The position numbers and the translations under genes were made by a program. A DNA stretch of 64,000 nucleotides from an uncultured Gemmatimonadales bacterium (GTDB lineage Bacteria; Gemmatimonadota; Gemmatimonadetes; Longimicrobiales; Gaopeijiaceae), in NCBI GenBank assembly GCA_963809895.1, contig CAWELD010000003.1, forward strand, positions 2,144,001-2,208,000. The letters run 5' to 3'. This document shows positions 37,241 to 57,593 of the stretch, one piece after another. Numbering within the stretch: the first letter of the stretch is position 1; every line of letters starts with the position of its first letter. A model generated the notes under the pieces. That model was not told the DNA's origin. It made no database searches and worked only from the letters and a program-made list of their open reading frames with translations.

Positions 37241-37280
37241 CCGAGCGAAGCCGCTCACGAGACCGCGCGATATCGCTCGC
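37241..37280. promoter_or_regulatory. Tandem candidate enhancer boxes (GAGCG-N4-CGCTCAC type)
   Basis: CCGAGCGAAGCCGCTCAC and CCGCGCGATATCGCTCGC, 22 bp apart, about 90-130 bp upstream of a sigma54-like promoter. Confidence 0.55.
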
Positions 37281-37366
37281 TCCGGGGTGTGGACGGCGCC
37301 GCAGCCGAGCCTGATCACATACCTTAACTCCATATCCCACATCGTCTTGTAGCATTCCGCGCCGAT

Positions 37367-37383
37367 CTGGCATCGCCCTTGTA
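37367..37383 (+). promoter_or_regulatory. Sigma54 -24/-12 promoter (GT variant at -12)
   Basis: CTGGCATCGCCCTTGTA: GG-N10-GT. Confidence 0.55.
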
Positions 37384-37437
37384 CTTCCATGAGGCCAGAA
37401 CGGACCCCACGACGGGATCCCTCACGCGGAGGACAAG

Positions 37438-38622
37438 ATGATCACCGAGACGACTTTCCGGACCGAACAACCCACCGAGACCCCGCTGCTCCTGAGGAGC
37501 ATCGGGCTCACCGGTCGGGTCGCGGTAAGCTGGACCATGGCGGGTGGCCTCCTTCTGGGCGGCGTGCTCGTCGCCGTGATGACGCTGGCCGGACGGCTGA
37601 GCGGACACGGCATCCTCGTCACTTCTACCGGCCTCTTCGTCATCGGCGCCCTGCTCGGGGCCCTGCACGGCAGCGTGCTGGGCATCCTGGGGCGCCCGTC
37701 CGACGTGAGCCGCAATGAGGCGCTCCACGCCCTGGGTCGCTCGGCCCTCTACGGCGTGCCCGGAGCCGCCGTCGCCTGGCTGGCCACGGTGTGGATCGCC
37801 ATGTCCATGGTGGCGGGCTATCTCGGCCGTCTGGGGCCCAAGATCCTGGTGGGAGGCGCCTGGGCCGTGGGTGCGGTCATGGTCCTCACCGCCGCCTTCC
37901 ACGGCTTCCGTGCGCTGCGCTACGCCTACGCCCGCTGGCCGGAGCGTGAGCTGGGCACGGCGCTGGTGGCCGCCAGCTTCGCCTCGCTTCTCATGGTGTT
38001 CCTGGCCGACCGGCCCACGCTGTGGCTGCTGCGGCTGCGCGTGACCGACGTCGGCGCCGTGCTGCTGGCCGCCCTGGTGGCCATCTGGGTCGCCGGCCCG
38101 CTGGTGACGCTGGCGCTGCGCCTGGTGAAGCAGCTCCCCGGTCGGGCACGGGCGACGGCGCGCGTCGCCGATCGCACCACCCTGGCCGACATCGGTGTCG
38201 GGCTCCTGGTGGGCGTGGTGGTCGGCCTGCTGGCGGTCCCCTTCGCCGGCCCGGCAGCCGGCCTGGTCGCCGGTGGCGTGGGTGGCTCGGTGGTGGCGGT
38301 GGCCCAGGCCGTGGTCAACGAGGTCCTGCTGCGGCTGGTGCTCCTCACCGGGCTGGCCTGGGTGATCCTCCGTTGGCGCCGCGTGCAGGCCGAAGAGGCC
38401 GCCGTCCTGGCCGTCACCGGAGTGGCCGTGGCCCAGGTCCTTCTCTACCTGCCGGGTGTGGTCGCCGCCGGATTCCCCTCGACGCTGGCCGCCGTGACCT
38501 TCATCGGCGCCGCCATCCTCCTGCCCGCCCTGGTCTTCGGAGCGGTCTTCTGGACGCGCGGTCTGACGGCCGCCCTGGTGGCCGACGTCACCGCCGCCCT
38601 GGCCCTCCTCCTCTTCATCTGA
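37438..38622 (+). CDS. Polytopic membrane protein of unknown function, degenerate CPBP/Abi-like C-terminus
   Basis: GGAGGA RBS; roughly 10-11 hydrophobic segments; VNEVLLRL resembles the CPBP EExxFR motif. Confidence 0.75.
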
Positions 38623-38660
38623 CATCGGGGCCGAAAGGGTGGAGCAACGCTTCTCCGCGG

Positions 38661-38689
38661 GGGCCGTGGGACGCACCGTCCCACGGCCC
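38661..38689 (+). terminator. Hairpin after the membrane protein gene
   Basis: 13-bp stem GGGCCGTGGGACG / CGTCCCACGGCCC. Confidence 0.6.
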
Positions 38690-38704
38690 TGCGGCCGTTC
38701 TGGT

Positions 38705-38773
38705 GTGAGCGCTGGCGCTCACCGCGCTGTTTCGCTCACTGCAAGTGCGTGTCCCGTGCGCACTTTCGCTCAC
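38705..38773. promoter_or_regulatory. Three more boxes ending in CGCTCAC
   Basis: GTGAGCGCTGGCGCTCAC (perfect 8-bp arms), CCGCGCTGTTTCGCTCAC, GTGCGCACTTTCGCTCAC. Confidence 0.55.
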
Positions 38774-38884
38774 AAGCCCTGAGAATCCCTTGACCCACGC
38801 GGCTTTCCGGTGAGAATTCATCGTACGGGTTTCGTGCCCCTCCCCACGCGATCCGGAGCGTCCACACCGGCCCGAGAGGCCCAC

Positions 38885-40342
38885 GTGTTCAGGTTCGCCC
38901 GGCTTCGCTCGCTGCCTTTGCGCAGCAAGGTCGTGCTCACGGTCGTCGGCGGTACGGCGGTCGTGCTCGGCGCGGCCACGTATCTCTCCTTCCGCTACTG
39001 GGAAGAAGAGGCGCTGTCGGCCGCCGAGCAGCAGGCCGTCCTGGCCGCCACCGCCACCCGCAGCACCCTGGAGTCCGCGTTCCGCCTGGGTCGGGAAGCC
39101 ACCGTCCGCCGCTATCTGCTGGATCTCCACGACCAGGCCCCCATCGTCTCCGCACGGGTCTACGCGAGCGATGGCCGCATCCTCTACTCCGCCACTCCCG
39201 GCGAAGAGGGCCGTCGCGACGCCTCGGTCTGGATCCCCGACGCCGGCGGTCTCCCCCGCGAAGGCGTGGTGCATCCCGACCCCGATGGCGCCACGGTCCG
39301 GGTCTTCCTGCCACTGACCTCGCCCGGCGCCTCGCTCCTCGAATTGGCCTTCTCCGTGGTCCCTCTGCGCGCCGCCATGCGCCGGGGCGCCCGCCTGGGC
39401 CTGGGATTGGTCGTGGGCTCTCTCCTGGCACTGGGCCTCATCATCGGCGCCATGTTGGAGAGGGAGGTGGTGACGCCGCTGCACCGGGTCGAGGGCGCCC
39501 TGGCGGCGCGCACCGGCCAGAACGAGAGCCGGCGCGACGAGGTACGGGGCATCGAGCAATCCCTCGAGCGGCTGCTGGAGCAGGAGCGCGAGGTCGTGGC
39601 CCGGGCCCAGGAGCGCGAAGGACTCGCCGAGGTGGGCCAGCTCGCGGCCGAGATGGCCCACGAGTTCAAGCGCCCGCTGGCCTCCATCCGCTCGGCGCTG
39701 GACATGTTGCAGCAGGAGTACCAGCTGGAGACGGGAGGCCGCGAGGTCATGGCGGCGGTGAATCAGCAATTGGTGCTGTTGGCCGACACGATGCAGGACC
39801 TCTTCACGCTGGCGCGCCCCGTGGACCTCCAGGACACGGCGGTGTCGATCCCCGAGACCCTGGACGAGGCGCTCCTGGAGTTCGCTGGCCAGCCCGGCGC
39901 CGGCCGGATCCAGGTGGTGCGCCGCTACGACCCCGACATCCCCACGGTGCGGGGCGACGAGCGCCGGCTCCGTCAGGCCTTCGCCAACCTCATGGTGAAC
40001 GCCCTGGAGGCCATGCCCGAAGGAGGTACGCTCACGCTGACCGTACGCGCCACGGAACACGGGCGCATCGCCGTCACCGTGTCCGACACCGGCGTGGGGC
40101 TGGACCCCCGCGAGATCGAGCGCGCCTTCCGACCGTTCTACTCCACCAAGCCCCTGGGCACCGGACTGGGCCTGCCGCTGGTGGCCCGCATGGTCGTGGC
40201 CCACGGCGGCGACATCTGTGTGGACAGCCATCCCGGCCAGGGGACCACCATCACCATCTTTCTGCCGACGACCCCCGGTGCCGGCGGAGAGGAGGATCCA
40301 TGTCCGAAGAGCGCATTCTCGTCCTCGACGACGACGCTCTGA
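38885..40342 (+). CDS. Membrane sensor histidine kinase (NtrB-like)
   Basis: Two TMs, AHEFKRPL H-box, NLMVNA, DTGVG, PFYSTK, GTGLGL. Confidence 0.92.
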
Positions 40343-41661
40343 TCCGCGACGTCCTGGCCGAGCGCCTGACGCGCCGGGGCTACCGGGTGGACAAGGCGTC
40401 CCGGCTGTCCGAGGCCCGTGAGTTCATCGGGCGCTCCACACCCGACGTGGCGCTGCTGGACGTGAAGCTCCCCGACGGCGAGGGCACCGAGCTTCTGGAG
40501 GAGCTGACCCAGGACGGCGCGGTGCCGTGCATCATGATGACCGCCCACGGCACCGTCACCTCGGCGGTGGAAGCGCTCAAGCTGGGCGCCGAGGACTTCC
40601 TGGAGAAGCCCTTCACGCCGGACCGCCTGGACACCACGCTGCGCCACGTGCTCGAGCGCACGCGCCTCAGGCGCGAGGTGCGGGCCATGCGGGAGCGGAG
40701 CAGCCTCGGCAGCACCATCGTGGGCTCGAGTCCGGCCATGAAGGAAGTGCTGGATCTCGTGCGCCGGGTGGCGTCGGCGGACACTTCGACGGTGCTGCTC
40801 CTGGGCGAGACGGGCACCGGAAAGGGCATGGTGGCCCACACCCTCCACGACCTGAGCCCCCGAGCCAAGGGACCCTTCGTCAACGTCACCTGCTCGGCCC
40901 TGGCCGAGTCCCTCATGGAATCGGAGCTCTTCGGCCACGAAAAGGGCGCCTTCACGGACGCTCGCACGCTGAAGCGAGGGCTGGTGGAGGTGGCGGCAGG
41001 CGGCACCTTGTTCCTGGACGAGATCGGCGAGCTGTCACTGGGCCTGCAGGGCAAGCTGCTGCGCTTCCTGGAGGACCGGAGCTTCCGTCGGGTGGGGGGC
41101 ACGGTGGACCTCACCGTGGATACGCGTATCATCGCCGCCACCAACCGCGACCTGGCCCGGGAAGTGGAGGAGGGGCGCTTCCGGGAGGACCTCTACTACC
41201 GGCTCCGCGTCCTTCCCGTTACCCTGCCCCCGCTCCGGCACCGACGAGGCGACGTGCGACCCCTGGTGCTGTCCTTCGTGGACACCTTCAACCGGGAGTT
41301 CGGCAAGCGTGTGCGCGAGGTGGCTCCGCAGGCGCTGGAGCTCATGGAGCACTACGCCTGGCCCGGAAACGTCCGTGAGCTGCGCAACGTGGTGGAGCGG
41401 GCGGTGCTCCTCACCGACGACGAGGTGCTCCTCCCGGAGGTGCTCCCCCCCGAGGTGCGCACGCCCGACGTGGACTCCGGCGGGGACGGCGAGATCGAGC
41501 TGGGACCCGAGGGTGTCGACCTCGAAGAACTGGAACGCCGGCTCCTCAGCGAGGCGCTGCGGCGAGCCGAAGGAAACCGTACCGAGGCGGGCCGGCTGCT
41601 GGGACTGAGCCGACACCAGATCCGCAATCGGCTGCACAAATTCGGAATGACGGATTGGTAG
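40300..41661 (+). CDS. Sigma54-dependent response regulator (NtrC family)
   Basis: REC domain, [38 protein letters not shown], Fis-type HTH. Confidence 0.95.
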
Positions 41662-41665
41662 AGCC

Positions 41666-42880
41666 ATGAGCGTTGCCGCACTCCTGACCCTGCTCCTGGT
41701 AGCCCCGGTGGCCTCTCCCGCCGCCCAGGCACCCCAGGTCGTTCCCGCCCGCGGTTCGGGCCTCGACTGCACCCTCTGTCACGGCGAGCTCGAGTTCCTG
41801 CGTCAGCACGTGGACCGCCTCGGCGAGGCGGAGGCGCTGCTGGTCACCGAAGGCCAGGTCGCGGCCTCGGCCCACGGCGGACAGAGCTGCACGAACTGTC
41901 ACCAGGGCTTCCGGCGCTGGCCGCATCCCGACAACGCCACTACCGCCACCTGCGCATCGTGTCACGAGGACGCGGCCGAGGTCTGGAGCGCTGGCGTGCA
42001 CGCGCGCGTGGACGAGGACGACACGGTGGCGGCGGAGTGCTCCGTCTGCCACGGTACGCACGACGTCGCGCCCAGGGAGGCGCTCCACGAAGGAGCTCCC
42101 ATGCAGCGCATGATGGCCCGCTGCGCCTCGTGCCACGAGACCGCGGTCCCACCGCCCACGAGTCCCCACGCGGACTCCGTGGCCTGCGTCTCCTGCCACG
42201 GAAGCCACGAGATCCGTGACGTGGACGCCCCCGAGTCCCTGGTTGCGCCCGATGCTCAGCCCTCGACCTGCGGGGCCTGCCACGAGGATCAGGCCGCGCT
42301 CTACGACGCCGACATCCACGGGACCCGCATGCGCGAAGAAGGCTCCATGGGGCTGTCGGCGTTGGCGCTGGGCACCGAGGAAGCCCCACCGGCTTGCACC
42401 ACGTGCCACGGAGGCCACGACACCCACGGCTCCGGCAAGGACGCCCCGGCCATGGATCAGGCCGCGGTGTGCGGCACCTGTCACGAGCCGTACGTGGAGA
42501 GCTTCGACCTGTCCTATCACGGGCAGGCGTCGGCCCTGGGCTCCGAGCTCGTGGCCACCTGCGCCGACTGTCACAGCGCCCACGGCGTGTATCCGAAAGA
42601 CGATGCACGCTCTACCGTGAACGAAGCGAACCTGGTCCAGACCTGCGGGACCTGCCACGAGCAGTCCAGTGCCAGCTTCGTCGAGTTCCAACCCCACGCC
42701 GATCACAACGACCGCGAGAACTACCCGGCGGTCTACTGGACGTACCGCCTCATGGCGGCGCTCCTCATCGGCGTCTTCGCCTTCTTCGGTCTCCATTCCT
42801 TCATGTGGGGTGGCCGGCTGGCCCTGGACCGCTTCCGGGCACCCCGCGACAAGCCCACCAGCTCAGGAGGTGCGCCGTGA
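41666..42880 (+). CDS. Membrane-anchored multiheme cytochrome c (11 CxxCH)
   Basis: Signal peptide, 11 CxxCH motifs counted, C-terminal TM helix containing His. Confidence 0.92.
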   Translation: MSVAALLTLLLVAPVASPAAQAPQVVPARGSGLDCTLCHGELEFLRQHVDRLGEAEALLVTEGQVAASAHGGQSCTNCHQGFRRWPHPDNATTATCASCHEDAAEVWSAGVHARVDEDDTVAAECSVCHGTHDVAPREALHEGAPMQRMMARCASCHETAVPPPTSPHADSVACVSCHGSHEIRDVDAPESLVAPDAQPSTCGACHEDQAALYDADIHGTRMREEGSMGLSALALGTEEAPPACTTCHGGHDTHGSGKDAPAMDQAAVCGTCHEPYVESFDLSYHGQASALGSELVATCADCHSAHGVYPKDDARSTVNEANLVQTCGTCHEQSSASFVEFQPHADHNDRENYPAVYWTYRLMAALLIGVFAFFGLHSFMWGGRLALDRFRAPRDKPTSSGGAP

Positions 42881-43811
42881 CGGACTCCGGCACGCCCGAT
42901 GCCGCCGCCGGCGCGGCCGCCCCGGGGGAGCTCCTCCCGCGAGTGAAGTCATACCCATGGACTCCGCCCAGCGGGGCGAGGGCCCCTACGTGTGGCGCTT
43001 CATTCTCTTCCACCGGATCACGCACGGGATGGTGATCGTCTCCTTCCTGCTCCTGGTCCTGACCGGGCTGCCGCTCCGCTTCAGCTGCGCCGTATGGTCG
43101 GCGCCGCTCATGCGACTCCTGGGCGGGGTGGAGATGGCGGGCATCCTGCACCGCATCGGAGCGGGCATCACCTTCGCCTACTTCGGCTCGCACGTGATCT
43201 TCCTGGCGCTGAAGCTCTACCGGGCGAAGAACCGGCGGGCGCTCCTGTGGGGGCCCGACTCGCTGGTGCCTCAGCCCCGGGACGCGCTGGACATGATCCA
43301 GCAGTTCCGCTGGTATCTGGGCCTCGGGCCGCGCCCGCGCTTCGGCCGCTACTCGTACATGGAGAAGTTCGACTACTTCGCCGTGTTCTGGGGCGTGGCC
43401 ATCATCGGTGGGTCGGGGCTCATGCTCTGGTTCCCCGAGTTCTTCGCGCGCTGGCTCCCGGGCTGGCTCTTCAACATCGCCACCGTGGTCCACGCCGACG
43501 AGGCGTTGCTGGCCGCCGGCTTCATCTTCACCGTGCACTTCTTCCACGTGCACCTGCGGCCGGAGAAGTTCCCGCTGGACGCGGTCATGTTCCACGGCCG
43601 CGCCACCGTCGAGTACATGGAGGAGGAGCACCCCATCGTCCTCGAGGGCATGCCCCGGGACGCCGAGCTTTCCGTCGAGCCTCGCGCCGACGCGCTCGCC
43701 CCCGCTCCCACCCACCGCCAGTCCATCATCGGCGCCACGCTGGGCTTCATCGCCCTGACCATCGGCGTCGTCTGCATCGGGTTGATCCTATGGGCCGTTT
43801 CGTTCTGCTGA
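42877..43811 (+). CDS. Cytochrome b subunit, FdnI/HydC-like (probable frameshift near 42935; in-frame ATG at 42957)
   Basis: HRITH, HRIGA, EKFDYFAVFWG, HADEALLA..HFFH, LRPEKFPLD. Confidence 0.88.
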
Positions 43812-45181
43812 CCGCCGGGCGGGCGGGCCGCGCCGGGCTGTTCCTGGCCGCCCTCTCCGCTCTCGCCGCCGCCGGGTGTGCCGAGCCGGCGCTCCAGCGC
43901 ACCGCCCGCGCCGACGGCGACCCCCACGCCGACGTGTCGTGCTCCACCTGCCACGACGGCCCGCTGGCCCAGGTGGGCGAGGCTGCCGTGCCCGCCCAGG
44001 CCTGCACCGCGTCGGGCTGCCACACCGACGGCGGCCCCCGCGAGGTGAAGCTGTCGTCCGTGGAGTTCCAGCACCGGGGCCACGGCGGCGACAGCACCAT
44101 CGTCGCCACCGCCTGCGCCGGCTGCCACACCCACGACGCCGGCAACGAGCCGCTGGTGGCCAACGTCGACGCGTGTTCGCTGTGCCACCTGAATCAGCAG
44201 GCCACCGGGGGCGGCGGCGAGTGCCGCACCTGCCATCAGGCGCCCTCGCACGTGGGCTTCACCAGCCAGGGCGTGGAGGTGCCACACCAGGGTCTTCCGT
44301 GGGTCGAGGGGGGATGCGTGCGCTGCCATTACGACGTGACGCGCCCTCCGGTCGAGGTCTCGGTGACCCGCTGCTCGAGCTGCCACACGGATCTGGACGC
44401 CGCGGTGGCGGGCGGGATCGGCGAGGATCTGCACCAGACCCACACGGGATCGGCGTGCACCGCCTGCCACGACGGGGGCACGCACCGCATCCAGGCCATG
44501 ACCTCCAGCGTGGATCTGCAGTGCACGGACTGCCACGCGCGCGAGCACGACCTGGAGCTGGCCGCTGATTTCCCCGACCCCGCCACCTGTGACGCCTGCC
44601 ACGGCAGCGCGCACCAGGCGGAGCAGCGCATGGTTCTGGGACTCGTCCCCGACCTGCCGGGCCCCGCACCGAGCGAGAAGTTCATGGACGGCCTCACCTG
44701 CCGGTCGTGCCACGGAACGCCCGGCGACACCGACCCGGCGACGCTGGTGCAGAGCGTGTCACAGGACTGCGTAGGCTGCCACCGGCCCGAGTACGCCACC
44801 GTGCTGCGCTGGTGGCGGCAGGGCTCGTCGGATCGCCTCGGTCGCACCGACCAATTCGTCTCCACCGCCCGGCGCAGGCTGGGCAACGCGTCGGACACGG
44901 TGGCCGGCGAGCTGGCGGCCGCGACCCGCATGGTGGACCTGGTGCGGGACGGGGGCGCGGTGCACAACCTGCCTCTGGCCCACGAGCTGCTCACCGAGGC
45001 GACCCAACGGGTGAGCGAGGCCTATCGGCTGGCCGGCGTGGACACGCCCGCGCCACCGAACCTCGGCCCCCAGCCCCGCATGGGCCTGTGCTCGTACTGC
45101 CACTACCGGCCCAACGACCCGTGGCTCTACGAAGAGATGTCCGGGTCCTTCCACAGAGACGTGCTGCGGATCGGAGGATAA
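43790..45181 (+). CDS. Multiheme cytochrome c lipoprotein (12 CxxCH + 1 CX4CH)
   Basis: Lipobox AAGC; motifs counted in the translation; GAVHN and helical C-terminus; start approximate. Confidence 0.88.
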   Translation: MGRFVLLTAGRAGRAGLFLAALSALAAAGCAEPALQRTARADGDPHADVSCSTCHDGPLAQVGEAAVPAQACTASGCHTDGGPREVKLSSVEFQHRGHGGDSTIVATACAGCHTHDAGNEPLVANVDACSLCHLNQQATGGGGECRTCHQAPSHVGFTSQGVEVPHQGLPWVEGGCVRCHYDVTRPPVEVSVTRCSSCHTDLDAAVAGGIGEDLHQTHTGSACTACHDGGTHRIQAMTSSVDLQCTDCHAREHDLELAADFPDPATCDACHGSAHQAEQRMVLGLVPDLPGPAPSEKFMDGLTCRSCHGTPGDTDPATLVQSVSQDCVGCHRPEYATVLRWWRQGSSDRLGRTDQFVSTARRRLGNASDTVAGELAAATRMVDLVRDGGAVHNLPLAHELLTEATQRVSEAYRLAGVDTPAPPNLGPQPRMGLCSYCHYRPNDPWLYEEMSGSFHRDVLRIGG

Positions 45182-45189
45182 GCCGCCCG

Positions 45190-45453
45190 TCAGAAGAGCT
45201 TCTTGATCCTCCCGAAGCCCTCCTTGATCTCCTCGGCCACGAGGTCGAAGGCCGCGCCCACGTCGCCGGACGCGTCCTTCGCCTCGCCGCCGAGCACCTT
45301 GAGACGCCCGCGCAGCTTCTGAAGCTTCTCCTCCAGCTCCTGCCACTCCTCGCGGGCCTCGAGCTTCGCCAGTCCCAGCTTGACCTTGAGCTCGTCCCGC
45401 TCCTTCTCCAGACGCTCGAGCAGCCGTTGGCGATTGGTGTCCTGGTCGGTCAT
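45190..45453 (-). CDS. Small coiled-coil hypothetical protein (87 aa)
   Basis: GAGGTG RBS; RDELKVKL.LAK.EA.EEW..LE.K heptads. Confidence 0.75.
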   Translation of the reverse strand: MTDQDTNRQRLLERLEKERDELKVKLGLAKLEAREEWQELEEKLQKLRGRLKVLGGEAKDASGDVGAAFDLVAEEIKEGFGRIKKLF

Positions 45454-45495
45454 GAGATGTCACCTCGATGTTCGGTTTCGGGGGATTCCCGCTAG

Positions 45496-45796
45496 CAGGT
45501 CGCTGAAGAAGGGGAGCACCCCGCGTTGGGAGCGCCACGGCCCCTCATCCTAGGCGAAGTGACGAAGGCATAGCCAAAGCTACGTCGAGGCGCTTCAACG
45601 ACGGAGGAGGGGCCGTGCCGCCCCAACCCACCACCTGCCAGGTTCATAGAGTGCATGTTGACGGGCGCATGGCGGTTCCGCGGTTGATCCATCGTCTCTC
45701 CTCCTCGCCGTAGCGCTGCTACGACTCGTCGTCTTTCCTTGCCTGAACGCGCGAAAGCGCCATGCGCGCGGGGTACTCCCCTTCTTCAGCGACCTG
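45496..45796. mobile_element. MITE (non-autonomous IS derivative), 301 bp
   Basis: 30-bp terminal inverted repeats CAGGTCGCTGAAGAAGGGGAG(C/T)ACCCCGCG (29/30), flanked by CTAG on both sides; no transposase. Confidence 0.85.
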
Positions 45797-45838
45797 CTAG
45801 AAGATACAGCACCGGCGGGAGGCGTGGGTTCCAGAGGG

Positions 45839-46918
45839 TCAGGTCCAGTCGCGGTCGGGAAGCTCTGTCCACGGGACGACATCGACGCCGTCCCTGTGCT
45901 GAGAGGTCTCGCCACCGTAGACCAGACGCAGCGCCGGCTCCGCCACATCCGCTTTGGCGACCAGCGCTTCCCGGAACATGCGCAGACTCCTCAGGAAGTC
46001 CGAAGCCACCGTGGCCCCCGACTTGACCTCCACCCCCATGATCCCGTCGCCGGCCTCGACCACCAGATCCACCTCCAGACCTCTCGTCTCCCGAAGGTGG
46101 TGCAGGCCCGAGGCCAACCCCCGATGTACGCGCGCCTTCAGGATCTCGGACGCCACCCAGCTCTCGAAGATCGCGCCGCGCAATGGATGGGTACGTAGCT
46201 GGTCCGGGCTTCGAATCCCCAGGAGGTGGCACGCGAGGCCAGAGTCCACGAAGTGCATCTTGGGTGCCTTCACGGCCCGCTTGCGCGTGTTGCGAAACCA
46301 GGGCGGTGCCGTGAAGACGATGAAGCTGGCCTCCAACACGGAGATCCAGGATCGAATCGTCGGGTGGGACACTCCCACGTCGCCGGCCAGGGCGGATAGG
46401 TGGAGCTCCTGCGCCGTGCGACCGGCCGCCAGCCGCAGAAAGGTGGCGAAGGCGTGGAGGTCGGACACGTTCAAGACCTGGCGCACATCCCGCTCCACGT
46501 AGGTCGCCTCGTAGTCCGCAAGCCAGCGATCCGCAGTCAGGTTCCGGTCATGGATCCTCGGGTACCCCCCGGTCCACACCGTCGGCCACAGGTCGTCGTG
46601 CGGAGCCGAGAATCCGCGGAGCTCGTCCAGGCTCATGGGCAGCAGGTGGAGGAGGGCCACGCGTCCAGCCAGCGACTGGCTGATCGCATCGGAGAGGCCG
46701 AAGTGCTGCGAGCCCGTCAGGATGAAGCGACCCGGGGTCGCGTCCCGATCCAGGTCTTCCTGAAGGTAGCTGAACAACTGCGGCGCCCTCTGCACCTCGT
46801 CCAGGATCGTCGCTCGGTGATACTGGCTCAGAAAGCCCCGAGGATCCGAGACGGCGTATTCGCGTACGTCCAGCGGTTCCAGCGTCACGTAGTCGTGGTC
46901 CGGAAAACACGCCTTGCA
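45839..46918 (-). pseudogene. 5'-truncated AAA_14/DUF4143 ATPase
   Basis: ILDEVQR, ILTGSQ, SLAGR, GGYP, YVERDV, GAIFES, EVD..EVKS present; start codon and Walker A missing before CKACFP. Confidence 0.8.
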
Positions 46919-46953
46919 ATCTCTGACAATCGCGCCGCTTCCTACACGGCGAA

Positions 46954-46986
46954 GGCCCGCCCCCACGACCAGCGTGGGGACGGGCC
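46954..46986 (-). terminator. Hairpin after the fused cytochrome gene
   Basis: GGCCCGCCCCCACG / CGTGGGGACGGGCC (13/14). Confidence 0.55.
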
Positions 46987-47043
46987 CGTTCGTTCCCGGA
47001 GCCGCGGCGCCGGAACGCCGCGGTCCCGGTGATGCGGCCGCGC

Positions 47044-49188
47044 CTAGCTCGAAGGCGTGGGCTCGGCGCCGCCGGGGAAGAGCTCGTCGTACTCCAGCTC
47101 GTGCTCTTCCTTGAGCCGTTCCAGGCTGATCTTGCCCGTGAACATGGTGGTGTCCAGGGGGAACACCTCCGGCCTGAGCATCACGCCGTAGGAGTGCCAC
47201 AGGATCACCACCAGCACCGCGAAGGTGGCCTCCAGGCCGTGGGCCACTCGCGCCGCTGCCAGGAAGATGCCCGGCAGCACCGTCGACGCCGCCTCCGGGA
47301 AGAGGAGGATGACGCCGGTGACGGTCATGAGCGTTCCGCCCAGGAAGAGTCCCCAGTACTCGAACTTCTCGCGGAAGTCGAACTTGCCGGACTTGGGCTT
47401 GGGCCCGCCCTTCAGCGCGTGCTTCAGGGTGCCCAGCGCCGTGTGGAAGTCCTGTTTCCGGAACATGATCTCGGGCAGCTTCCTCCGCTTGATGGCGCCC
47501 GCGATACCCCGGCTCAGGTGCATGGCCAGGAGCCCGACGAAGACCACGCCGGTCACCCGGTGCACGATGCGCGTGGGTCCGATGCCACCCCAGAGCTGGA
47601 TGAGCCAGTGGGCCAGCGGGGAGTCGGGCCGCGTCTGCGGTAGCCCCGTGACGATGAGCAGGATGAAGGTGGACGCGGCGCCCATGTGCTCCACCCGCTC
47701 CATGATGTTGAACCTGGGCACCATGGGATGCCGTTCTCCTTCGTGACGACGGCGGGCGAAGAAGGCGCGGATCTTCTGCGCTCCCTCGGAGGCCAGGAGC
47801 CGCGCTCCGGTCCGACGCTGGTGCTGCACGTCGAAGAGGATGTTCAACAGCAGCCCGAAGAGTACGAAGGGGATCATCACGTAGTAGAAGGATCTCAGAC
47901 CCCAGATGACGATCTGATTGCGGGGTCCGGGCGGCGTGTGCCCGAGCCAGGCACCGGCGAACTTCGCGTCGGCCTTCTCGTGGCAGCCCTGACACACCGC
48001 GCTCACGTCGGCCATGGTGCCGTGCCATCCCACCGCGTGGGCACCGTGGCAGTCGGAGCAGACCAGCACGTCGGGCTGAAGCCCGTCGTCACCGTGACCC
48101 TTCAGGAAGCTCACCGTGGCGCCGTGGAAGTCGTCCTTCCACGTCACGCCCATCCCTCTGGGCAGGTCGTACTTCTCCACCAACGACGCCTCCGAATGGC
48201 ACTGGAGGCAGCGGGTGGTCTCCTGCACGGGGATGGCTCCCACGTCGCCGGCCTCGGGCCCATGGGCCTGGTGGCAGGTCACGCAGGTGGGCAGATCCGG
48301 GTTGGGATCCACCGCGGCCAGGCCGTCGGCGTGTCCCCCCTCACGGTACTGCGCCAGCTCCTCTTCGTGGCAGGTCCCGCAGCGCTGGGCCACCGCCGTC
48401 TCGGCCTCCGGAAAGCCCGGGTCCGTCGCGAAGGCGTGGCACTGCGTGCAGGTGGGACCGTCCTCTGCGTTCACGTGGGCCGGCGTCACCGCCTCGTGGT
48501 CCTCGTGGCACTGGAGGCACGCCTGCTCCTGCACCTCCGGAGGCGCCAGCGCCGGTCCGTCGTGGATGGCGTGGCACTGCGAGCACGAGGCCTCGCTGTC
48601 CTCACCCTGCATGTGCAGGGGGTGGGCGTCCTCGTGGCACGAGCCGCAGCTCGCCGCCGGCGAGGCCGCGGGCACGAGGCCCGGCGCGCTCGGATCGGGG
48701 TGTCCGGTGTGGCACTGCACGCAGGCGGGGCCGTCCTCCAACTGGCCCGGATGCGTGTGGTCCACGGTCTCGTGGCACTGCTGGCATCCGTCGGTCTTGA
48801 GGAGGAAGTCGTCATCCGCCACCGCGCCATGGTCCGTACCCGAACCATGGATCGAGTGACACGACGTGCACACCGGCGCGTCACCACCCACGTCCGGGTG
48901 TGCCGGATGAACGTCCTCGTGGCAGCTCACGCACGCGTCCAGCCTGCGCGCCTGGGCCTGCTCGGGGTCGTTGGTGAAACCCACGTGGTGACACGACAGA
49001 CACGACACCGTGTCCCCGTGGAGCGAAGCCCGCCGGGCGCGGATGTCCACGCTCGGATGGCAAGACTGGCAGACCTGCGCCTCGTCTCCGGGCTTCGCTG
49101 TCTGGGCCGGTGCCGGCATGGGCGACGCGGCCAGGCTCAAAGCCATCAGCCCCGTGATCCATGCCGGCCCGGCAATGGTGGAACGCAT
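47044..49188 (-). CDS. Fused multiheme cytochrome c (15 CxxCH) and cytochrome b, CbcL-like
   Basis: Signal peptide; 15 CxxCH counted; then ERVEH, HRVTG, EKFEYW, HGLEA..WHSY, LRPEVFPLD membrane domain. Confidence 0.92.
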   Translation of the reverse strand: MRSTIAGPAWITGLMALSLAASPMPAPAQTAKPGDEAQVCQSCHPSVDIRARRASLHGDTVSCLSCHHVGFTNDPEQAQARRLDACVSCHEDVHPAHPDVGGDAPVCTSCHSIHGSGTDHGAVADDDFLLKTDGCQQCHETVDHTHPGQLEDGPACVQCHTGHPDPSAPGLVPAASPAASCGSCHEDAHPLHMQGEDSEASCSQCHAIHDGPALAPPEVQEQACLQCHEDHEAVTPAHVNAEDGPTCTQCHAFATDPGFPEAETAVAQRCGTCHEEELAQYREGGHADGLAAVDPNPDLPTCVTCHQAHGPEAGDVGAIPVQETTRCLQCHSEASLVEKYDLPRGMGVTWKDDFHGATVSFLKGHGDDGLQPDVLVCSDCHGAHAVGWHGTMADVSAVCQGCHEKADAKFAGAWLGHTPPGPRNQIVIWGLRSFYYVMIPFVLFGLLLNILFDVQHQRRTGARLLASEGAQKIRAFFARRRHEGERHPMVPRFNIMERVEHMGAASTFILLIVTGLPQTRPDSPLAHWLIQLWGGIGPTRIVHRVTGVVFVGLLAMHLSRGIAGAIKRRKLPEIMFRKQDFHTALGTLKHALKGGPKPKSGKFDFREKFEYWGLFLGGTLMTVTGVILLFPEAASTVLPGIFLAAARVAHGLEATFAVLVVILWHSYGVMLRPEVFPLDTTMFTGKISLERLKEEHELEYDELFPGGAEPTPSS

Positions 49189-49211
49189 GATCGTCTCCGT
49201 AGTGCGGCAGG

Positions 49212-49880
49212 TCACTCGGCCCGGGCGATGGCGCCCCAGACGGTCTCACCCATCACCCAGAAGAGCGCGCCGACGCCGATGACGGGCAGGAAGATCACGA
49301 ACGCCAGCCCCAGGATCGGCGCGGCGATGAGTCCACCCACGGTCTCCAGCGCACCCAGCACGCCGCCCCGGCTCTGCTCCTCCACCTCCACCGCCTCGAG
49401 GAGCGTCGCCAGCTCCCGCTCCACCTCCGTTGCTTCGTCCAGTACCGCAGCCGCGGCCTCGGGCGTGGCCGCCGCCACCTCACCCTGGATCTTCTCCTCG
49501 CCTTCCAGCAACCCGAGATGCAGCGCCGCCGTGATCACGTTGGCCAGCGTGTCCGGACCGATGGGCTTGTTGAGGAAATCGAACGCGCCCAGCTCCTTGG
49601 CCCGGTCCTCCACGCTCGCGTCGCCGTAGCCGGTGACCAGTACGAACGGCGTCTCCGGCTGCTCGTCGTGCACCCACTCGAGAAGCTGAAGTCCGTCCAC
49701 CGTGGGCATGCGCAGATCGGAGATCACGATGTCCGCGGGATTGCGCCTGAGCTCGGAGATGGCGCTCTCTCCGTCGACGGCGGTGGTGACCTCGTAGCCG
49801 CGCCCGGTCAGGAACCGGTCCCAGCTGTCGCGGACCCCCGCCTCGTCGTCGACCAACATCACCCTCGTGTTCGCCTTCAT
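49212..49880 (-). CDS. Response regulator receiver with C-terminal hydrophobic hairpin and no DNA-binding domain
   Basis: LVDD, SDLRMP, VTG, KP; acidic linker; LIAAPILGLAFVIFLPVIGVGALFW tail; AAGGAGG RBS. Confidence 0.85.
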   Translation of the reverse strand: MKANTRVMLVDDEAGVRDSWDRFLTGRGYEVTTAVDGESAISELRRNPADIVISDLRMPTVDGLQLLEWVHDEQPETPFVLVTGYGDASVEDRAKELGAFDFLNKPIGPDTLANVITAALHLGLLEGEEKIQGEVAAATPEAAAAVLDEATEVERELATLLEAVEVEEQSRGGVLGALETVGGLIAAPILGLAFVIFLPVIGVGALFWVMGETVWGAIARAE

Positions 49881-49935
49881 GATGTCCCTCCTTCCGGGAA
49901 CGAACGGCCTGTCCTGCATGGTTTCCTGCTCCATC

Positions 49936-50346
49936 TCAACTGGCTGGTGTGGTGGCCCACAGAGACCGCGCTTGAACGCGGCGCACGGCGTCGACCAGCC
50001 GGTCCAGCTCTTCGTCGTCACCTTCCGATCGCACCAGGTCGACGCCGCAGGAGATGAGATACTCCAGCACGGGAAGGGGGAGGGGACCTTCCACGACGAC
50101 GACCTTCTGCAGCTCCGGGTACTCCAGCGCCATGCGGGCCACCACGGCCAGCATGCTGCCCCGGGGCACGGGTCGGAGGTCGAGCACCAACACGGAAACG
50201 GAGGAGAGCGACTGCTCCCTCAGGAGTTCCTCGAGGCTGGTGTGCCAGGAGAAATGCGCGTCGTCGCCGGCGAGACCCGCCGCCAGCGTCGCGGCTCCTT
50301 CGGTGTCCGAGAGCAGGACCGTCGATCCGGATTCTGCCACCAACAC
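49936..50346 (-). CDS. Atypical receiver-like small protein
   Basis: AAGGAGG RBS before GTG; alternating beta/alpha pattern with VLVLD; lacks canonical DD and KP. Confidence 0.6.
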   Translation of the reverse strand: MLVAESGSTVLLSDTEGAATLAAGLAGDDAHFSWHTSLEELLREQSLSSVSVLVLDLRPVPRGSMLAVVARMALEYPELQKVVVVEGPLPLPVLEYLISCGVDLVRSEGDDEELDRLVDAVRRVQARSLWATTPAS

Positions 50347-50427
50347 GTTGCCACCCTCCTTCGGCCCCGGGGGTGGTCGACCGCCACCCTGTCGGGACTC
50401 GCTTCCGTGTACTCGACCACGAACAAG

Positions 50428-50444
50428 GGCAAGCGGTGTGCCGT
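50428..50444 (-). promoter_or_regulatory. Sigma54 -24/-12 promoter
   Basis: Minus strand CGGCACACCGCTTGC: GG-N10-GC. Confidence 0.75.
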
Positions 50445-50538
50445 AAATCACGAGATTTGCGTTATCGCCGTAACTTCTTGTGCACGAGCTATTTACGGCC
50501 CAGGCCCGCGACACGCGGTGGCGGCCGGAAAGCGTCAG

Positions 50539-50673
50539 GTGTATGCGGCGCATATACAGCTCGACCCCCGCCGGTGAGCGGAGGTCGCGGCCCGCAAGGG
50601 ATCAAATCGTTGTGGGACAGTTACTTAGGGAGATCGGTGCCGCTGGGGGAGGGCGTATACGCGCCACACACGC
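50539..50673. promoter_or_regulatory. Two related palindromic boxes flanking an IHF-like site
   Basis: GTGTATGCGGCGCATATAC (50539-50557) and an inverted 15/19 copy (50655-50673); GATCAAATCGTTG at 50600-50612 is one mismatch from WATCAANNNNTTR. Confidence 0.5.
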
Positions 50674-50698
50674 CCCCGGAGCGGGGGCAAGACCAGGG

Positions 50699-52159
50699 TC
50701 AGGACCCCGCCTCCGCCTCGTCGGCGTCGTCCTGGTCGGCACCTCCGGGAGTGGTGATCCCGTGTTTGCGCATGAGGGCGTGCAGGTTGGGGCGCTGCAT
50801 GTCCACCTCGCGCGCGGCGCGGGACACGTTCCAGCGAGCCTTCCTGAGCGCCTTGAGCACGAAGAGCTTCTCCAGCCGCTCCACCGACTCGGCCCTGAGC
50901 TCCTTCTTGCGCAGCGCCAGCGTGCGTGCGTCGTCGGGGACGTCGTTCCACTCCTCGGTGGGCACCTCGCCCACGACGGTGGGCACGTCGTCGATGTCGA
51001 TGACGTGGTCGTCGGCCACCAGCACGGCGCGCTCGATGACGTGCTCGAGCTCCCGCACGTTGCCGGGCCAGTCGTGGACCTCCAGCGCCGTCATGGCCCG
51101 GGGCGTGATCCCGTCGATGCGCTTCTCGAACTCCTCGGCGTAGCGCTTCATGAAGTGATGCGCCAGCAGGGGAATCTCCTCGGTACGCTCCCGGAGCGGG
51201 GGCAGCTGGATGGTGAAGACGCTGAGTCGATAGTAGAGGTCGTCGCGGAAGGCGCCCTCCTCCACCAGCCCCTGCAGGTCCACGTTGGTGGCGGCGATGA
51301 GGCGCACGTCCACCGGGACCGCTTTGTCCGAGCCCACGGGGCGGATCTCCCGCTCCTGGATGAGCCGGAGCAGGCTTCCCTGGATCTGGGGCGACAGCGA
51401 GCTGATCTCGTCCAGGAAGAGCGTGCCGCCCCGGGCGGTCTCGGCCAACCCCTTGCGATCCTTCACGGCGCCGGTGAACGCACCGCGCACGTGTCCGAAG
51501 AGCTCCGACTCCAGCAACGACTCGCTCAGCGAGGCGCAGTCCGCCACCACCAGGGGGTGGTCCTTGCGGGGGCTGTTGTAGTGGATGGCCCGGGCGATGA
51601 GCTCCTTGCCCGTGCCGGTCTCGCCGGTGATGAGGACCGTGCTGTTGGTGGGCGCGACCTTGGCCACGAGCTGCATGACCTTGCGCATGGGCGGCGACGA
51701 GCAGATGACGTTGCCGATGCGGTAGCGCGTCTCGAGCTCGGAGCGCAGCCGGCGGGTCAGGTCCAACAGATGCCGTCGCTCCAGCGCCCGGGCCACGGAC
51801 ACCAGGAGCTGCGGTGGGCTGACCGGCTTCTGCAGGTAGTCGAAGGCGCCGAGCTTGATGGCCTCCACCGCCGTCTCGATGGTGGCGTAGCCGGTGATGA
51901 TCACCACCTCGGTCTCGGGCGACGCATCGCGCGTCGCGCGCAGCAGCTCGATGCCGTCCAGCTCGGGCATCTTGATGTCCACCAACAGCAGGTCGAAGGT
52001 CTCCCTGCGGATCTTGTCCAGGCCCTCGCGGGCCGAGGTGGTGGTGGTGACGTCGTAGCCCTCCGCCGAGAGCACCCGGCGGATGCTCTCGCAGACGACC
52101 TCCTCGTCGTCCACGGCGAGGACGCGAGGCGGCTCGGTCCAGGTGCGTTCGTCGGTCAT
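50699..52159 (-). CDS. Sigma54-dependent response regulator (NtrC family)
   Basis: REC domain, [34 protein letters not shown]. Confidence 0.95.
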   Translation of the reverse strand: MTDERTWTEPPRVLAVDDEEVVCESIRRVLSAEGYDVTTTTSAREGLDKIRRETFDLLLVDIKMPELDGIELLRATRDASPETEVVIITGYATIETAVEAIKLGAFDYLQKPVSPPQLLVSVARALERRHLLDLTRRLRSELETRYRIGNVICSSPPMRKVMQLVAKVAPTNSTVLITGETGTGKELIARAIHYNSPRKDHPLVVADCASLSESLLESELFGHVRGAFTGAVKDRKGLAETARGGTLFLDEISSLSPQIQGSLLRLIQEREIRPVGSDKAVPVDVRLIAATNVDLQGLVEEGAFRDDLYYRLSVFTIQLPPLRERTEEIPLLAHHFMKRYAEEFEKRIDGITPRAMTALEVHDWPGNVRELEHVIERAVLVADDHVIDIDDVPTVVGEVPTEEWNDVPDDARTLALRKKELRAESVERLEKLFVLKALRKARWNVSRAAREVDMQRPNLHALMRKHGITTPGGADQDDADEAEAGS

Positions 52160-53778
52160 GATGCAGCCGAGATCATGGAGAGAGCGGGAACGGGCAACAG
52201 CACGGTGAACTCCGCACCGGACCTCCCGTCGCTGGAGGCGAGAATGGCCCCGCGGTAACGCCGGACCAGCCCCATGGACACCGACAGCCCCAGTCCCGAC
52301 CCCTGGCCCACGGGCTTGGTGGTGAAGAAGGGATCGAAGATACGGCCCAGGTCTTCGGGAGCGATGCCCGTCCCGGTGTCCCGGACGCGGATCCGCACCA
52401 GCGAGGTTCCGTGGTGCGGGGGAAGCTTGACGTTGGCGTAGTCCCCCCGGCTGGCAATATCGGCCTTCACCGTGAGCCTTCCGCCGTCGGGCATGGCGTG
52501 GATGGCGTTCATCATGAGGTTCACGAACACCTGTTGGAGTTGGACCTCGTTGGCTTCCACCATGGGCAGGTCGTCGGGGATCGACGTTCTCAGCTCCACA
52601 CCGGCGTTCTGCAGCTCGATCTTGAGGAGCTCCACCGCCTTCTGCAATGCCCGCTGTACACTGGAGGGCTCCGGCTCCGGCAGCTCGTCCTGCTTGCGGG
52701 AGAAGTCCAGGAGCTGGCGGATGATGGCGGCGCAGCGGTTCGCCTCACGCACGATCATCTGCACGTCGTCCCGGGCCTGGGACTCCGAGGGGAGCGTGTC
52801 GTGGACCAGGTGCGCGTAGGTGATGATGGCCATGAGGGGGCTGTTGAGCTCGTGGGCGATGCCCGCCGCCACCAATCCCACGGACGACAGCTTCTCCGCC
52901 TGCACCACCTGGTACTGGGCGGCCCGGAGCTGCGACGCCTTCTCCGCAACGTTCTGTTCCAGCGTCTCCACCCAGTCCTCGATGTGCTGGCTGGAGCTGC
53001 TCAGGCTCGCCACCATGTCGTTGAAGGAGCTCACCAGGAACCCGATCTCGCCGGTGGCTCCACCCGAGACCGGATGTCGAAAGTCGCCGCTGGCGACCCG
53101 GCGGGTGGCGGCGATCATGCGGTTGATGGGCCGTCGCACCCGGTGTGAGATGAGGAAGAAGAGCCCGGCGGAGATCATCAGAACCGCCAGCAGCGAGGTC
53201 AGGAACGCGCTGCGGGTGGCGTCCAGCAGGCGGGCCTCGGCCGGTTCCAGCGACATGGTCACGTCCAGTACCCCGAGCACGCTCTGTTGCGCGGGCGAGG
53301 CGTGGCAGCGGGCGCCGGAGCACCCGGCTTCGTTGCGGATGACCTGAATGGTGCTCAGCACCCGGCTCCCGTCGGGATTGGTGAAGACGCGGGAGCGGTC
53401 CTCGGGATTCAGGTGCGCGTTGGGCGACGGACCGTAGTGGCAGGTCACGCACGCCTCCGCCCGCTTGTCCACCACGGTCCCCACCTCGGTGGAGTCCGAG
53501 GAGTGCGTGATCTCGCCTTCCTTGTTGTAGATGCGCACGCGCTCGATCCCGGCGTGCTGGCCCACGGACTCCAGCATCTCGCGCACACCCTCCTGCCGGT
53601 TGGCGCGCATGTCCTGCTTGATGCTGAGCCCGATGGTCTCGGCCAGGCTCTCGGAGCCCACGATCACCTCGTCCTGCAGGTGGCGGCGCTCCGAGCGGAT
53701 CTGGATCGTGGAGAGCGCCGCCACCCCGACGAGGGCCAGGACACCGGCCGAGAGGGCGATTCGCGTGCTGAGGAGCAT
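52156..53778 (-). CDS. Sensor histidine kinase with heme-c motifs in the periplasmic domain, plus HAMP
   Basis: CVTCH and CSGARCH between two TMs; AHELNSPL, NLMMNA, DTGTG, PFFTTK, GSGLGL. Confidence 0.92.
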   Translation of the reverse strand: MLLSTRIALSAGVLALVGVAALSTIQIRSERRHLQDEVIVGSESLAETIGLSIKQDMRANRQEGVREMLESVGQHAGIERVRIYNKEGEITHSSDSTEVGTVVDKRAEACVTCHYGPSPNAHLNPEDRSRVFTNPDGSRVLSTIQVIRNEAGCSGARCHASPAQQSVLGVLDVTMSLEPAEARLLDATRSAFLTSLLAVLMISAGLFFLISHRVRRPINRMIAATRRVASGDFRHPVSGGATGEIGFLVSSFNDMVASLSSSSQHIEDWVETLEQNVAEKASQLRAAQYQVVQAEKLSSVGLVAAGIAHELNSPLMAIITYAHLVHDTLPSESQARDDVQMIVREANRCAAIIRQLLDFSRKQDELPEPEPSSVQRALQKAVELLKIELQNAGVELRTSIPDDLPMVEANEVQLQQVFVNLMMNAIHAMPDGGRLTVKADIASRGDYANVKLPPHHGTSLVRIRVRDTGTGIAPEDLGRIFDPFFTTKPVGQGSGLGLSVSMGLVRRYRGAILASSDGRSGAEFTVLLPVPALSMISAAS

Positions 53779-54050: not shown

Positions 54051-54278
54051 ATGGCTCTACTCTATTTCGGACCCGAGGTCATGATGCCGCTGGCATCGGC
54101 CGCCGCCGCTTTGCTGGGCGGTCTGCTGATGTTCTGGCGGCGAGTCGTCGGCTGGGTCAAGGCCGTCGCTCACCGTGTCGCCGGCCTCTTCGGGCGCGAC
54201 CCTGGCAGCCTCGACATGCCTCCGACCGCGGCCGGACCGCAGCGGCGGAAGCGCCCGGCCAAGAGGCGGGTGGGGTGA
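54051..54278 (+). CDS. Small single-TM protein leading the phosphodiesterase operon
   Basis: LYFGP then a hydrophobic helix and basic tail; stop overlaps the next GTG. Confidence 0.6.
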   Translation: MALLYFGPEVMMPLASAAAALLGGLLMFWRRVVGWVKAVAHRVAGLFGRDPGSLDMPPTAAGPQRRKRPAKRRVG

Positions 54279-57582: not shown

Positions 57583-57593
57583 GGGCTCCGGCG

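Follow-up and report, generated by a model that had tools for sequence, protein, structure and literature searches.

We analysed a 64,000-nt stretch of DNA, hereafter the window (G000:C3:2144001-2208000), from the genome of an uncultured Gemmatimonadales bacterium (G000; 5.3 Mb, 95% complete). Positions 37241-53778 of the window hold two convergent operons that encode multiheme c-type cytochromes, FdnI-like b-type cytochromes and two-component regulators. A total of 40 CxxCH motifs were found in the six frames of this region, against a mean of 0.66 and a maximum of 4 in 100 shuffles. Thirty-eight of them fall in three cytochromes (11 + 12 + 15), one in a sensor kinase and one in a shadow frame. 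An earlier note on this DNA had described cytochromes with 11, 13 and 15 hemes, two FdnI-like cytochrome b domains and two pairs of kinase and sigma54-dependent activator, one per operon. All of these were confirmed in place, the cytochromes by open reading frames (ORFs) and motifs, the b domains by PF01292 and TIGR01583 matches and four invariant histidines, and the regulators by ORFs and domain matches. Near-identical pieces are present in soil, wetland, salt-marsh and sediment runs from four studies, among which may be the study that yielded this genome.

The forward operon is preceded by a sigma54-type -24/-12 promoter (37368..37382, + strand) that has GT rather than GC at -12, as in many homologues. 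The first gene (37438..38622, +) encodes a 394-aa membrane protein with about 10 transmembrane helices (TM), resembling a degenerate Rce1/CPBP-like protein by cluster matches. This protein has no Pfam or NCBIfam match; its matches to Rce1-like Atlas clusters (0.91-0.96) are taken as a lead only, and of the protease motifs of such proteins only E295/R299 are conserved among 40 sequences. Domain matches identify the next two products as sensor histidine kinase 1 (38885..40342, +), with two TM and no heme motif, and sigma54-dependent response regulator 1 (40300..41661, +), with a GAFTDA loop. They are followed by an 11-heme cytochrome c (41666..42880, +) with a signal peptide and a C-terminal TM, whose heme spacing points to the N-terminal half of a split CbcL/MtrH/MtoC-type protein. 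The spacing runs 40...25,30,28 with the TM at +35, compared with 40/41...25,30,28 and a TM at +41/42 in MtoC and MtrH. The C-terminal half is an FdnI/HydC-like diheme cytochrome b (42877..43811, +; PF01292, TIGR01583). The assembly starts this gene at ATG 42957; the true start is probably GTG 42877, overlapping the upstream stop. A G-run near 42923 contains one extra G in three of four public runs, which brings 42877 into frame, so that with the extra G the b gene would start on the upstream stop. A frameshift as the cause of the forward split was rejected, since the variant G-run lies after the stop and relatives commonly have split genes as well. The Gemmatimonadota loci hold 52 split and 39 fused b domains (the fused ones mostly in one clade), as judged from open frames, so that some assignments may be wrong. 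An apparent 1187-aa fusion in G009 was an artefact of a run of N. The 13-heme predicted lipoprotein cytochrome c (43790..45181, +) contains 12 CX2CH and one CX4CH by motif count. Of 58 homologous segments, 57 retain the CX4CH and one has a canonical CxxCH in its place; because the CX4CH is conserved in a 12-motif protein, 13 hemes is a reasonable count. This lipoprotein would be a periplasmic relay.

The reverse operon has its own sigma54-type -24/-12 promoter, found by motif search (50429..50443, -). It encodes a 15-heme cytochrome c/cytochrome b fusion (47044..49188, -) of a five-TM subfamily of CbcL/MtrH/MtoC (PF01292; FdnI 1kqf_C, E 0.0012). The b domain shares 34% identity with the forward b domain, and an unrooted FastTree phylogeny puts the fusion into a five-TM clade of its own. 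The operon also encodes a receiver-domain protein with a C-terminal TM (49212..49880, -; domain match) and a 136-aa protein (49936..50346, -) that has no family match, is conserved in three homologous loci and in our reading resembles a degenerate receiver. Sigma54-dependent response regulator 2 (50699..52159, -; domain matches, GAFTGA) and sensor kinase 2 (52156..53778, -), on the far side of the promoter, complete the reverse operon. A palindrome, TGTAT-N9-ATACA (50539..50559), occurs once in the genome and is a candidate binding site for regulator 2; similar palindromes lie upstream in homologous loci L021, L047 and L023.

According to its motifs and a structural model, sensor kinase 2 has a periplasmic Cache-fold domain with a CX2CH (C110/C113/H114) and a CX4CH (C153/C158/H159). 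Among the kinase 2 homologues, the CX2CH is kept in 111/112 and the CX4CH in 112/112. The AlphaFold2 (AF2) model of the sensor (pLDDT 84) adopts a Cache fold, and Foldseek retrieved WalK and GSU0935 (3b42), a heme-c sensor, with E 1.4e-5. By sequence, the search of the sensor against the PDB matched kinase cores only, and the sensor has no PF11845 match, only PF21563 at E 0.003. Like the sCache_heme sensors (GSU0582/GSU0935, Tll0287), kinase 2 combines a Cache fold, a HAMP-kinase fusion and a heme-type motif in the loop that leads to the last strand. Those sensors have CXXCH in this loop, whereas kinase 2 has CX4CH there and, on an earlier helix, CX2CH as its second invariant motif. NO (nitric oxide)-sensor properties are described for one-heme sCache_heme domains in a 2026 preprint (PMC12889525), and the terms 'two heme' and 'second heme' are absent from its accessible text. 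On the basis of these motifs, kinase 2 is a candidate two-heme redox or NO sensor. The sensor domain would carry two hemes; the CX4C pair could instead be a disulfide.

The sigma54 control proposed in the earlier note is borne out by the conservation of the -24/-12 promoters and by the presence of rpoN in the genome. Using a relaxed pattern picked after the homologues had been viewed, the motif was found ahead of the first forward-operon gene in 24 of the 37 upstream regions of homologues (2.1 expected) and upstream of the reverse unit in 3/3 homologous loci (0.17 expected). Control upstream regions show no excess (kinase 1, 2/41 with 2.8 expected; 11-heme cytochrome, 6/63 with 4.3 expected).

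By sequence, both membrane modules fit the CbcL/MtrH/MtoC family, and the forward pair is a split member. Zhong and Shi (2018; PMC6295460) described this family from 15 phyla and from both Fe(III) reducers and Fe(II) oxidisers; its members have 3-23 hemes and mostly six TM, and one of them is from Gemmatimonadetes (MAF27600.1, 19 motifs). The mtrH/mtoC genes are located in mtrAB/mtoAB clusters (PMC6295460). The two modules have 11 and 15 N-terminal CX2CH motifs, within the 3-23 of the family, and both have a HydC/FdnI-like b domain with conserved His. Members have six TM, five or four in a few, and we count 1+5 in the forward and 5 in the reverse module; simple hydropathy gave 5 and 4, and one His-bearing helix in each was added from the alignment. 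The c and b parts form one polypeptide in the reverse module and two in the forward module, whose close relatives are both split and fused. Four histidines (His23/65/179/194) are invariant in 123/123 aligned b domains. The PF01292 match is below the cut-off for the forward b domain (E 5e-5) and above it for the reverse one (7e-14), and both match TIGR01583 below its cut-off.

Compared through published motif coordinates as a proxy for sequences, the modules share with CbcL (GSU0274), MtrH and MtoC the N-terminal multiheme c part, the HydC/FdnI-like b part, the His ligands, the TM spacing and an association with porin-cytochrome genes. The terminal heme spacing of 25,30,28 in the forward module is shared with MtoC, MtrH and MAF27600.1. 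Unlike these proteins, the forward copy is split and accompanied by a dedicated 13-heme lipoprotein and the Rce1-like membrane protein, the reverse copy combines five TM with 15 hemes, and the partner barrel described below is not MtrB/MtoB. Both operons have sigma54 promoters, whereas cbcL is constitutive (10.1101/2021.04.15.440034). In Geobacter sulfurreducens, CbcBA is induced by the sigma54 activator BccR (10.1101/2021.04.15.440034), and the arrangement resembles ours in the two-gene c and b module, the C-terminally anchored c subunit, the sigma54 promoter with an adjacent activator and the additional receiver-type gene in the operon. CbcB, however, has 4 TM and three His, with the fourth His on the 7-heme CbcA, and has no homology to CbcL (10.1101/2021.04.15.440034). 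Here the b subunit carries all four His, and 11 hemes rather than 7 are found on the c subunit; this His layout and heme count rule out identity with CbcBA. The adjacent catalytic and Fe-S subunits that go with a membrane anchor of FdnGHI/HydABC are lacking, and the score is far below the FdnI cut-off. The suggestion of the earlier note that this is an undescribed type of system could not be upheld, since the family is catalogued with a Gemmatimonadetes member in PMC6295460 and CbcBA is a precedent for sigma54 control of such a module.

A scan of the genome collection confirmed at least 521 relatives of the forward cytochrome b. We kept 79 loci, the top 56 of which are Gemmatimonadota, and the named homologues are Gemmatimonadota, many of them Longimicrobiales. 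Among these 56 loci, many of which stop at contig edges, the 11-heme and cytochrome b genes occur in 56, with the 13-heme gene also present in 52, the kinase/activator pair in 43 and all six genes in 35. Genome-wide counts were made in a panel of 61 genomes including G000 (60 relatives), 22 with the cytochrome b and 39 without, which has at least four genomes in common with the locus panel. The reverse-type protein is found in 5/60 relatives, less than 10 kb from the forward operon in G029 and G032, 2.7 Mb away in G009 and on other contigs in G004 and G035. The kinase 2 gene adjoins the reverse-type gene in G004 and G035 and lies elsewhere in G009. Conservation is wide for the forward operon; the reverse operon is seldom present and often lies apart from it. 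What the earlier note took for one self-contained 16.5-kb island is therefore two separable units, unlinked in three of the five relatives that have both. In L047 the entire reverse unit lies behind the forward operon, with both reading the same way, and the two subfamilies occur together in 7/23 non-Gemmatimonadota loci from several phyla. It follows that the convergent arrangement is peculiar to G000, although pairing as such is recurrent. Gemmatimonadales loci L088, L091-L095 and L097-L101 have two to three tandem 11-heme and cytochrome b units, with split and fused forms mixed in one operon. In L103, L105, L110, L114 and L121, which belong to other phyla, proteins of about 500 aa with 5-6 hemes, presumably ImcH-like, are encoded beside CbcL-type genes; to our knowledge, the ImcH family has been reported only in reducers. 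L121 additionally has a kinase 2 homologue.

A predicted porin-cytochrome conduit (C3:2238197-2245249; L041) starts 30 kb past the window end. It encodes an 8-heme lipoprotein, a 17-heme protein with weak NapC/NrfH matches (E 0.003 and 7.5e-5), a 488-aa predicted barrel (C3:2240555-2242021), a 16-heme cytochrome, a tetratricopeptide-repeat lipoprotein and a monoheme protein. The AF2 model of the 488-aa protein (pLDDT 86) is an unplugged barrel with 22 long strands by our own count, and the whole barrel matches 22-strand transporters (Z 18, root-mean-square deviation 4.1-4.3, about 360 residues). In the fold search MtrB (Z 15.2) does not rank ahead of TonB-type proteins (Z 18), so this search cannot place the barrel in a family. 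The barrel has no Pfam or NCBIfam match, its Atlas clusters are mainly Gemmatimonadota, and a search with its profile among the non-Gemmatimonadota loci gave no clear homologue (best E 0.046, L104). Within the panel, the barrel family is present in 22/22 genomes with the cytochrome b versus 10/39 without it. In 21 relatives, barrel and operon are less than 10 kb apart in 9, about 30 kb apart in 2 and on different contigs in 10. The forward operon converges directly on the conduit cluster in G001, G004 and G009, and G000 keeps this orientation across 49 kb that include the reverse operon and an integrase/tRNA-Lys element. This latter element (G000:C3:2222190-2233984) is a low-GC integrated element between the island and the conduit, with an integrase-like gene and tRNA-Lys at its end. 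The earlier note had pictured a heme wire ending in the periplasm without a porin, which does not agree with the co-occurrence of the barrel family in all 22 genomes or with the cluster just past the window.

The conduit was compared with known types. The Pcc clusters of Shi et al. (2014; PMC4245776) comprise OmbB-OmaB-OmcB, and the accessible text of that paper does not mention Gemmatimonadota. Like them, the conduit combines a barrel (18-22 strands, predicted) with periplasmic and lipoprotein multihemes, and FdnI-like membrane cytochromes occur in some Pcc clusters; unlike them, it has a 16-heme cytochrome (5-14 hemes published), an extra 17-heme NapC-like protein and a barrel without a family match. 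Compared through families rather than directly, the conduit proteins gave no family match that would indicate OmbB/OmaB homology. MtrCAB/MtoAB have an MtrB/PioB barrel with 28 predicted strands and a DmsE-type decaheme, in contrast to the 22-strand model here; the TIGR03508 score is far below cut-off and MtrB/PioB (PF11854) was not found in the 95% complete G000 genome. A paralogous conduit (8, 9, 16 and 9 hemes, barrel) lies in a row with Rieske and cytochrome b6 genes at G000:C10:1137370-1145546 (L042). A further cluster, with a ferredoxin/flavin oxidoreductase, lies at G000:C3:569291-577533 (L043). The contigs of RNA run X4 contain near-identical pieces of both operons, and a 1553-nt contig over the 8-heme lipoprotein gene has a depth of 152, compared with 0-23 for the other listed pieces and about 0 over the integrase. 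X4 consists of contigs only, cannot rank expression and may include DNA, so these observations are a hint and were not used as evidence.

Catalytic partners were searched for in the window, the genome and the relatives. The earlier note had found no molybdoenzyme, hydrogenase, Fe-S subunit or MtrB-like porin in the window; the first two absences hold (four molybdopterin-family matches in the genome, none within the window; hydrogenase encoded outside the window), that of Fe-S subunits holds for the island genes, which were checked with Pfam, and that of a porin is true of the window only. Clustering of 848 neighbour proteins from 69 Gemmatimonadota loci revealed no recurrent molybdoenzyme, hydrogenase or Fe-S neighbour; single loci with such genes nearby are L026, L072 and L090. 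The view that these are CbcL-like quinone-interface modules without a linked catalytic subunit is thus supported. Cytochrome c maturation, which the earlier note required, is also provided for, as Ccm genes are present in the genome. Outside the window, G000 encodes an Fe-S/membrane protein with a 997-aa molybdopterin-family enzyme (G000:C3:1963186-1967678).

Between the operons lie three further features. An 87-aa coiled-coil protein (45190..45453, -) stands outside the system in relatives. The repeat search identified a 309-bp element resembling a miniature inverted-repeat transposable element (45492..45800), with 34-nt terminal inverted repeats and nine near-full copies (81-100%) as well as partial ones in the genome. 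It is the deepest part of the window in the X4 contigs, probably because it is multicopy. A 5'-truncated AAA_14/DUF4143 gene (45839..46888, -; Pfam-type matches) adjoins the reverse operon end and possibly marks a rearrangement junction. Both the repeat and the truncated gene had been overlooked in the earlier note. Elsewhere in the window, 54051-59507 (+) encodes a small membrane protein, two phosphodiesterase-family proteins and a sulfatase-like protein, and this block also flanks the forward operon in G003 and, in part, in G005. One 1620-aa frame (28838-33700, -) holds, through fusion or read-through, what we take to be a sodium:solute-symporter-like N-terminus and a SusC/TonB-receptor-like protein; similar frames of 1461-1481 aa occur in G012 and G014, and a separate 587-aa gene in G004.

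On balance, and with some reserve, we favor the reading that the two operons provide regulated entry to the porin-cytochrome conduit on its quinol side, with electrons moving outward. The FdnI-like diheme b domains with four invariant His, together with the 15 c-heme motifs joined to the reverse domain and the 11 on a TM-anchored protein beside the forward one, are the step read from the sequence itself. Quinone chemistry at the b domain, likely menaquinol oxidation, is suggested by analogy with FdnI and CbcL. The gene order suggests that the 13-heme lipoprotein would pass electrons across the periplasm, and co-occurrence and linkage point to a hand-over to the 16-heme/22-strand barrel pair with the 8-heme lipoprotein, or to the C10 paralogue. 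In a heterotroph, the electrons would then flow outward, with Fe(III), Mn(IV) or humics as acceptors. Judging from the conserved promoters, each operon would be under its own predicted sigma54 two-component control. The two operons would serve different conditions, because the forward one has its own activator and the reverse one is an accessory module switched by a heme-sensor kinase.

Several observations weigh against this reading. Quinone reductases of Fe(II) oxidisers also belong to the CbcL/MtrH/MtoC family, the forward heme spacing fits MtoC as well as MtrH, and neither a cultured carrier nor physiology for any carrier was found. The 22/22 count overstates the co-occurrence because the genomes are kin. 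The barrel lies in the flank of only 4/56 Gemmatimonadota loci and any conduit gene in 13/56 (11/27 among loci of at least 19 kb), and operon and barrel are on different contigs in 10/21 relatives. The conduit does not need these operons, since it has its own candidate quinol interface in the 17-heme protein and 10 genomes have the barrel without the cytochrome b. No sigma54 site was found upstream of the conduit cluster in G000, which gives no support for co-regulation with the operons.

It is rather unlikely, in our judgment, that the modules instead feed soluble periplasmic enzymes (clade II NosZ, octaheme proteins, peroxidases) or store electrons, with the barrel co-occurring through a low-oxygen lifestyle. 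G000 does have NosZ above cut-off in a clade II nosZ cluster (G000:C3:1024256-1030450), around which no NosG/NosH-like gene was evident by eye in the gene list, and an octaheme HAO-like protein with a membrane partner (G000:C10:1160032-1162127). The resemblance of kinase 2 to NO-binding Cache_heme sensors, the stand-alone operon in most Gemmatimonadota loci and the two to three tandem copies in Gemmatimonadales, which increase heme capacity, point the same way. NosZ, however, occurs in 14/22 carriers (7/39 of the other genomes), being not found in carriers G029, G040, G050 and G058 (95-97% complete), and the octaheme protein in 7/22; no such enzyme recurs beside the operon, whereas conduit genes do.

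The same conduit might also run inward, the modules being MtoC-like quinone reductases to which Fe(II), reduced humics or partner cells supply the electrons. This is consistent with a heme spacing equal to that of MtoC of Dechloromonas and Gallionella, with the lack of any feature that separates oxidases from reductases (PMC6295460) and with an aa3-type oxidase, alternative complex III and NosZ as sinks in the genome. The conduit, however, has a lipoprotein multiheme, which is taken in PMC3903129 as a mark of reduction, not oxidation, and in other phyla the pair is found next to the presumably ImcH-like proteins of a family reported from reducers only; we consider inward flow quite unlikely. 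We regard it as highly improbable that a formate dehydrogenase or hydrogenase encoded elsewhere (Fdn/Hyd or Hmc/Tmc-like) would use the cytochromes b as orphan membrane anchors. The FdnI similarity, a hydrogenase gene at a distance of about 10 kb in L090 and about 20 kb in G060, and an Fe-S and NrfD-type-looking pair seen by eye beside the cytochromes of the non-Gemmatimonadota loci L121 and L124 would fit such a role; the G000 hydrogenase operon, however, has its own cytochrome b, the scores are far below the FdnI cut-off, and no Fe-S or catalytic neighbor recurs in the 69 loci.

Published descriptions of the abundant phylum Gemmatimonadota present its members as aerobic or facultative heterotrophs. 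The literature searched yielded no account of this operon or barrel, most subscription papers lying outside the search. The accessible text of two Gemmatimonadota genomics papers (PMC10581226, PMC11651109) contains no such system, and that of PMC11495043 and PMC12133095 nothing bearing on it. Multi-heme proteins are listed without detail in Gemmatimonadota metagenome-assembled genomes (MAGs) in PMC9769843. A group is named for 26 of the 36 porin-cytochrome (PCC)-bearing MAGs of PMC13264449, and Figure 6 of that paper may include Gemmatimonadota. The locus contributes the conserved sigma54 operon, the split/fused variation, the 22/22 co-occurrence and the two-motif sensor kinase; the surprise is limited because Geobacter already provides both the components and the principle.

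A broader proposal, which we offer only tentatively, is that Gemmatimonadota commonly respire extracellular solids via their own barrel family and use two-component control to select from as many as four entry points on the quinone side (split CbcL-type, fused CbcL-type, NapC-like 17-heme and Rieske/b6), with the accessory entry switched by a two-heme Cache sensor kinase that reads periplasmic redox potential directly. If so, the set would parallel the potential-tuned ImcH/CbcL/CbcBA set of Geobacter, having been built independently and being switched genetically, and the two-heme Cache sensor would be a sensor type not described before. The sensor of kinase 2, a small and soluble domain that can be expressed, would make it possible to test how cells detect which inner-membrane cytochrome is called for. 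The conserved cytochrome b and the -24/-12 site could serve as markers of the operon in metatranscriptomes and electrode enrichments. Should the proposal be true, a common soil and sediment phylum would have an unrecognized role in Fe/Mn/humic redox cycling, one that would have been missed because the barrel has no Pfam or NCBIfam model.

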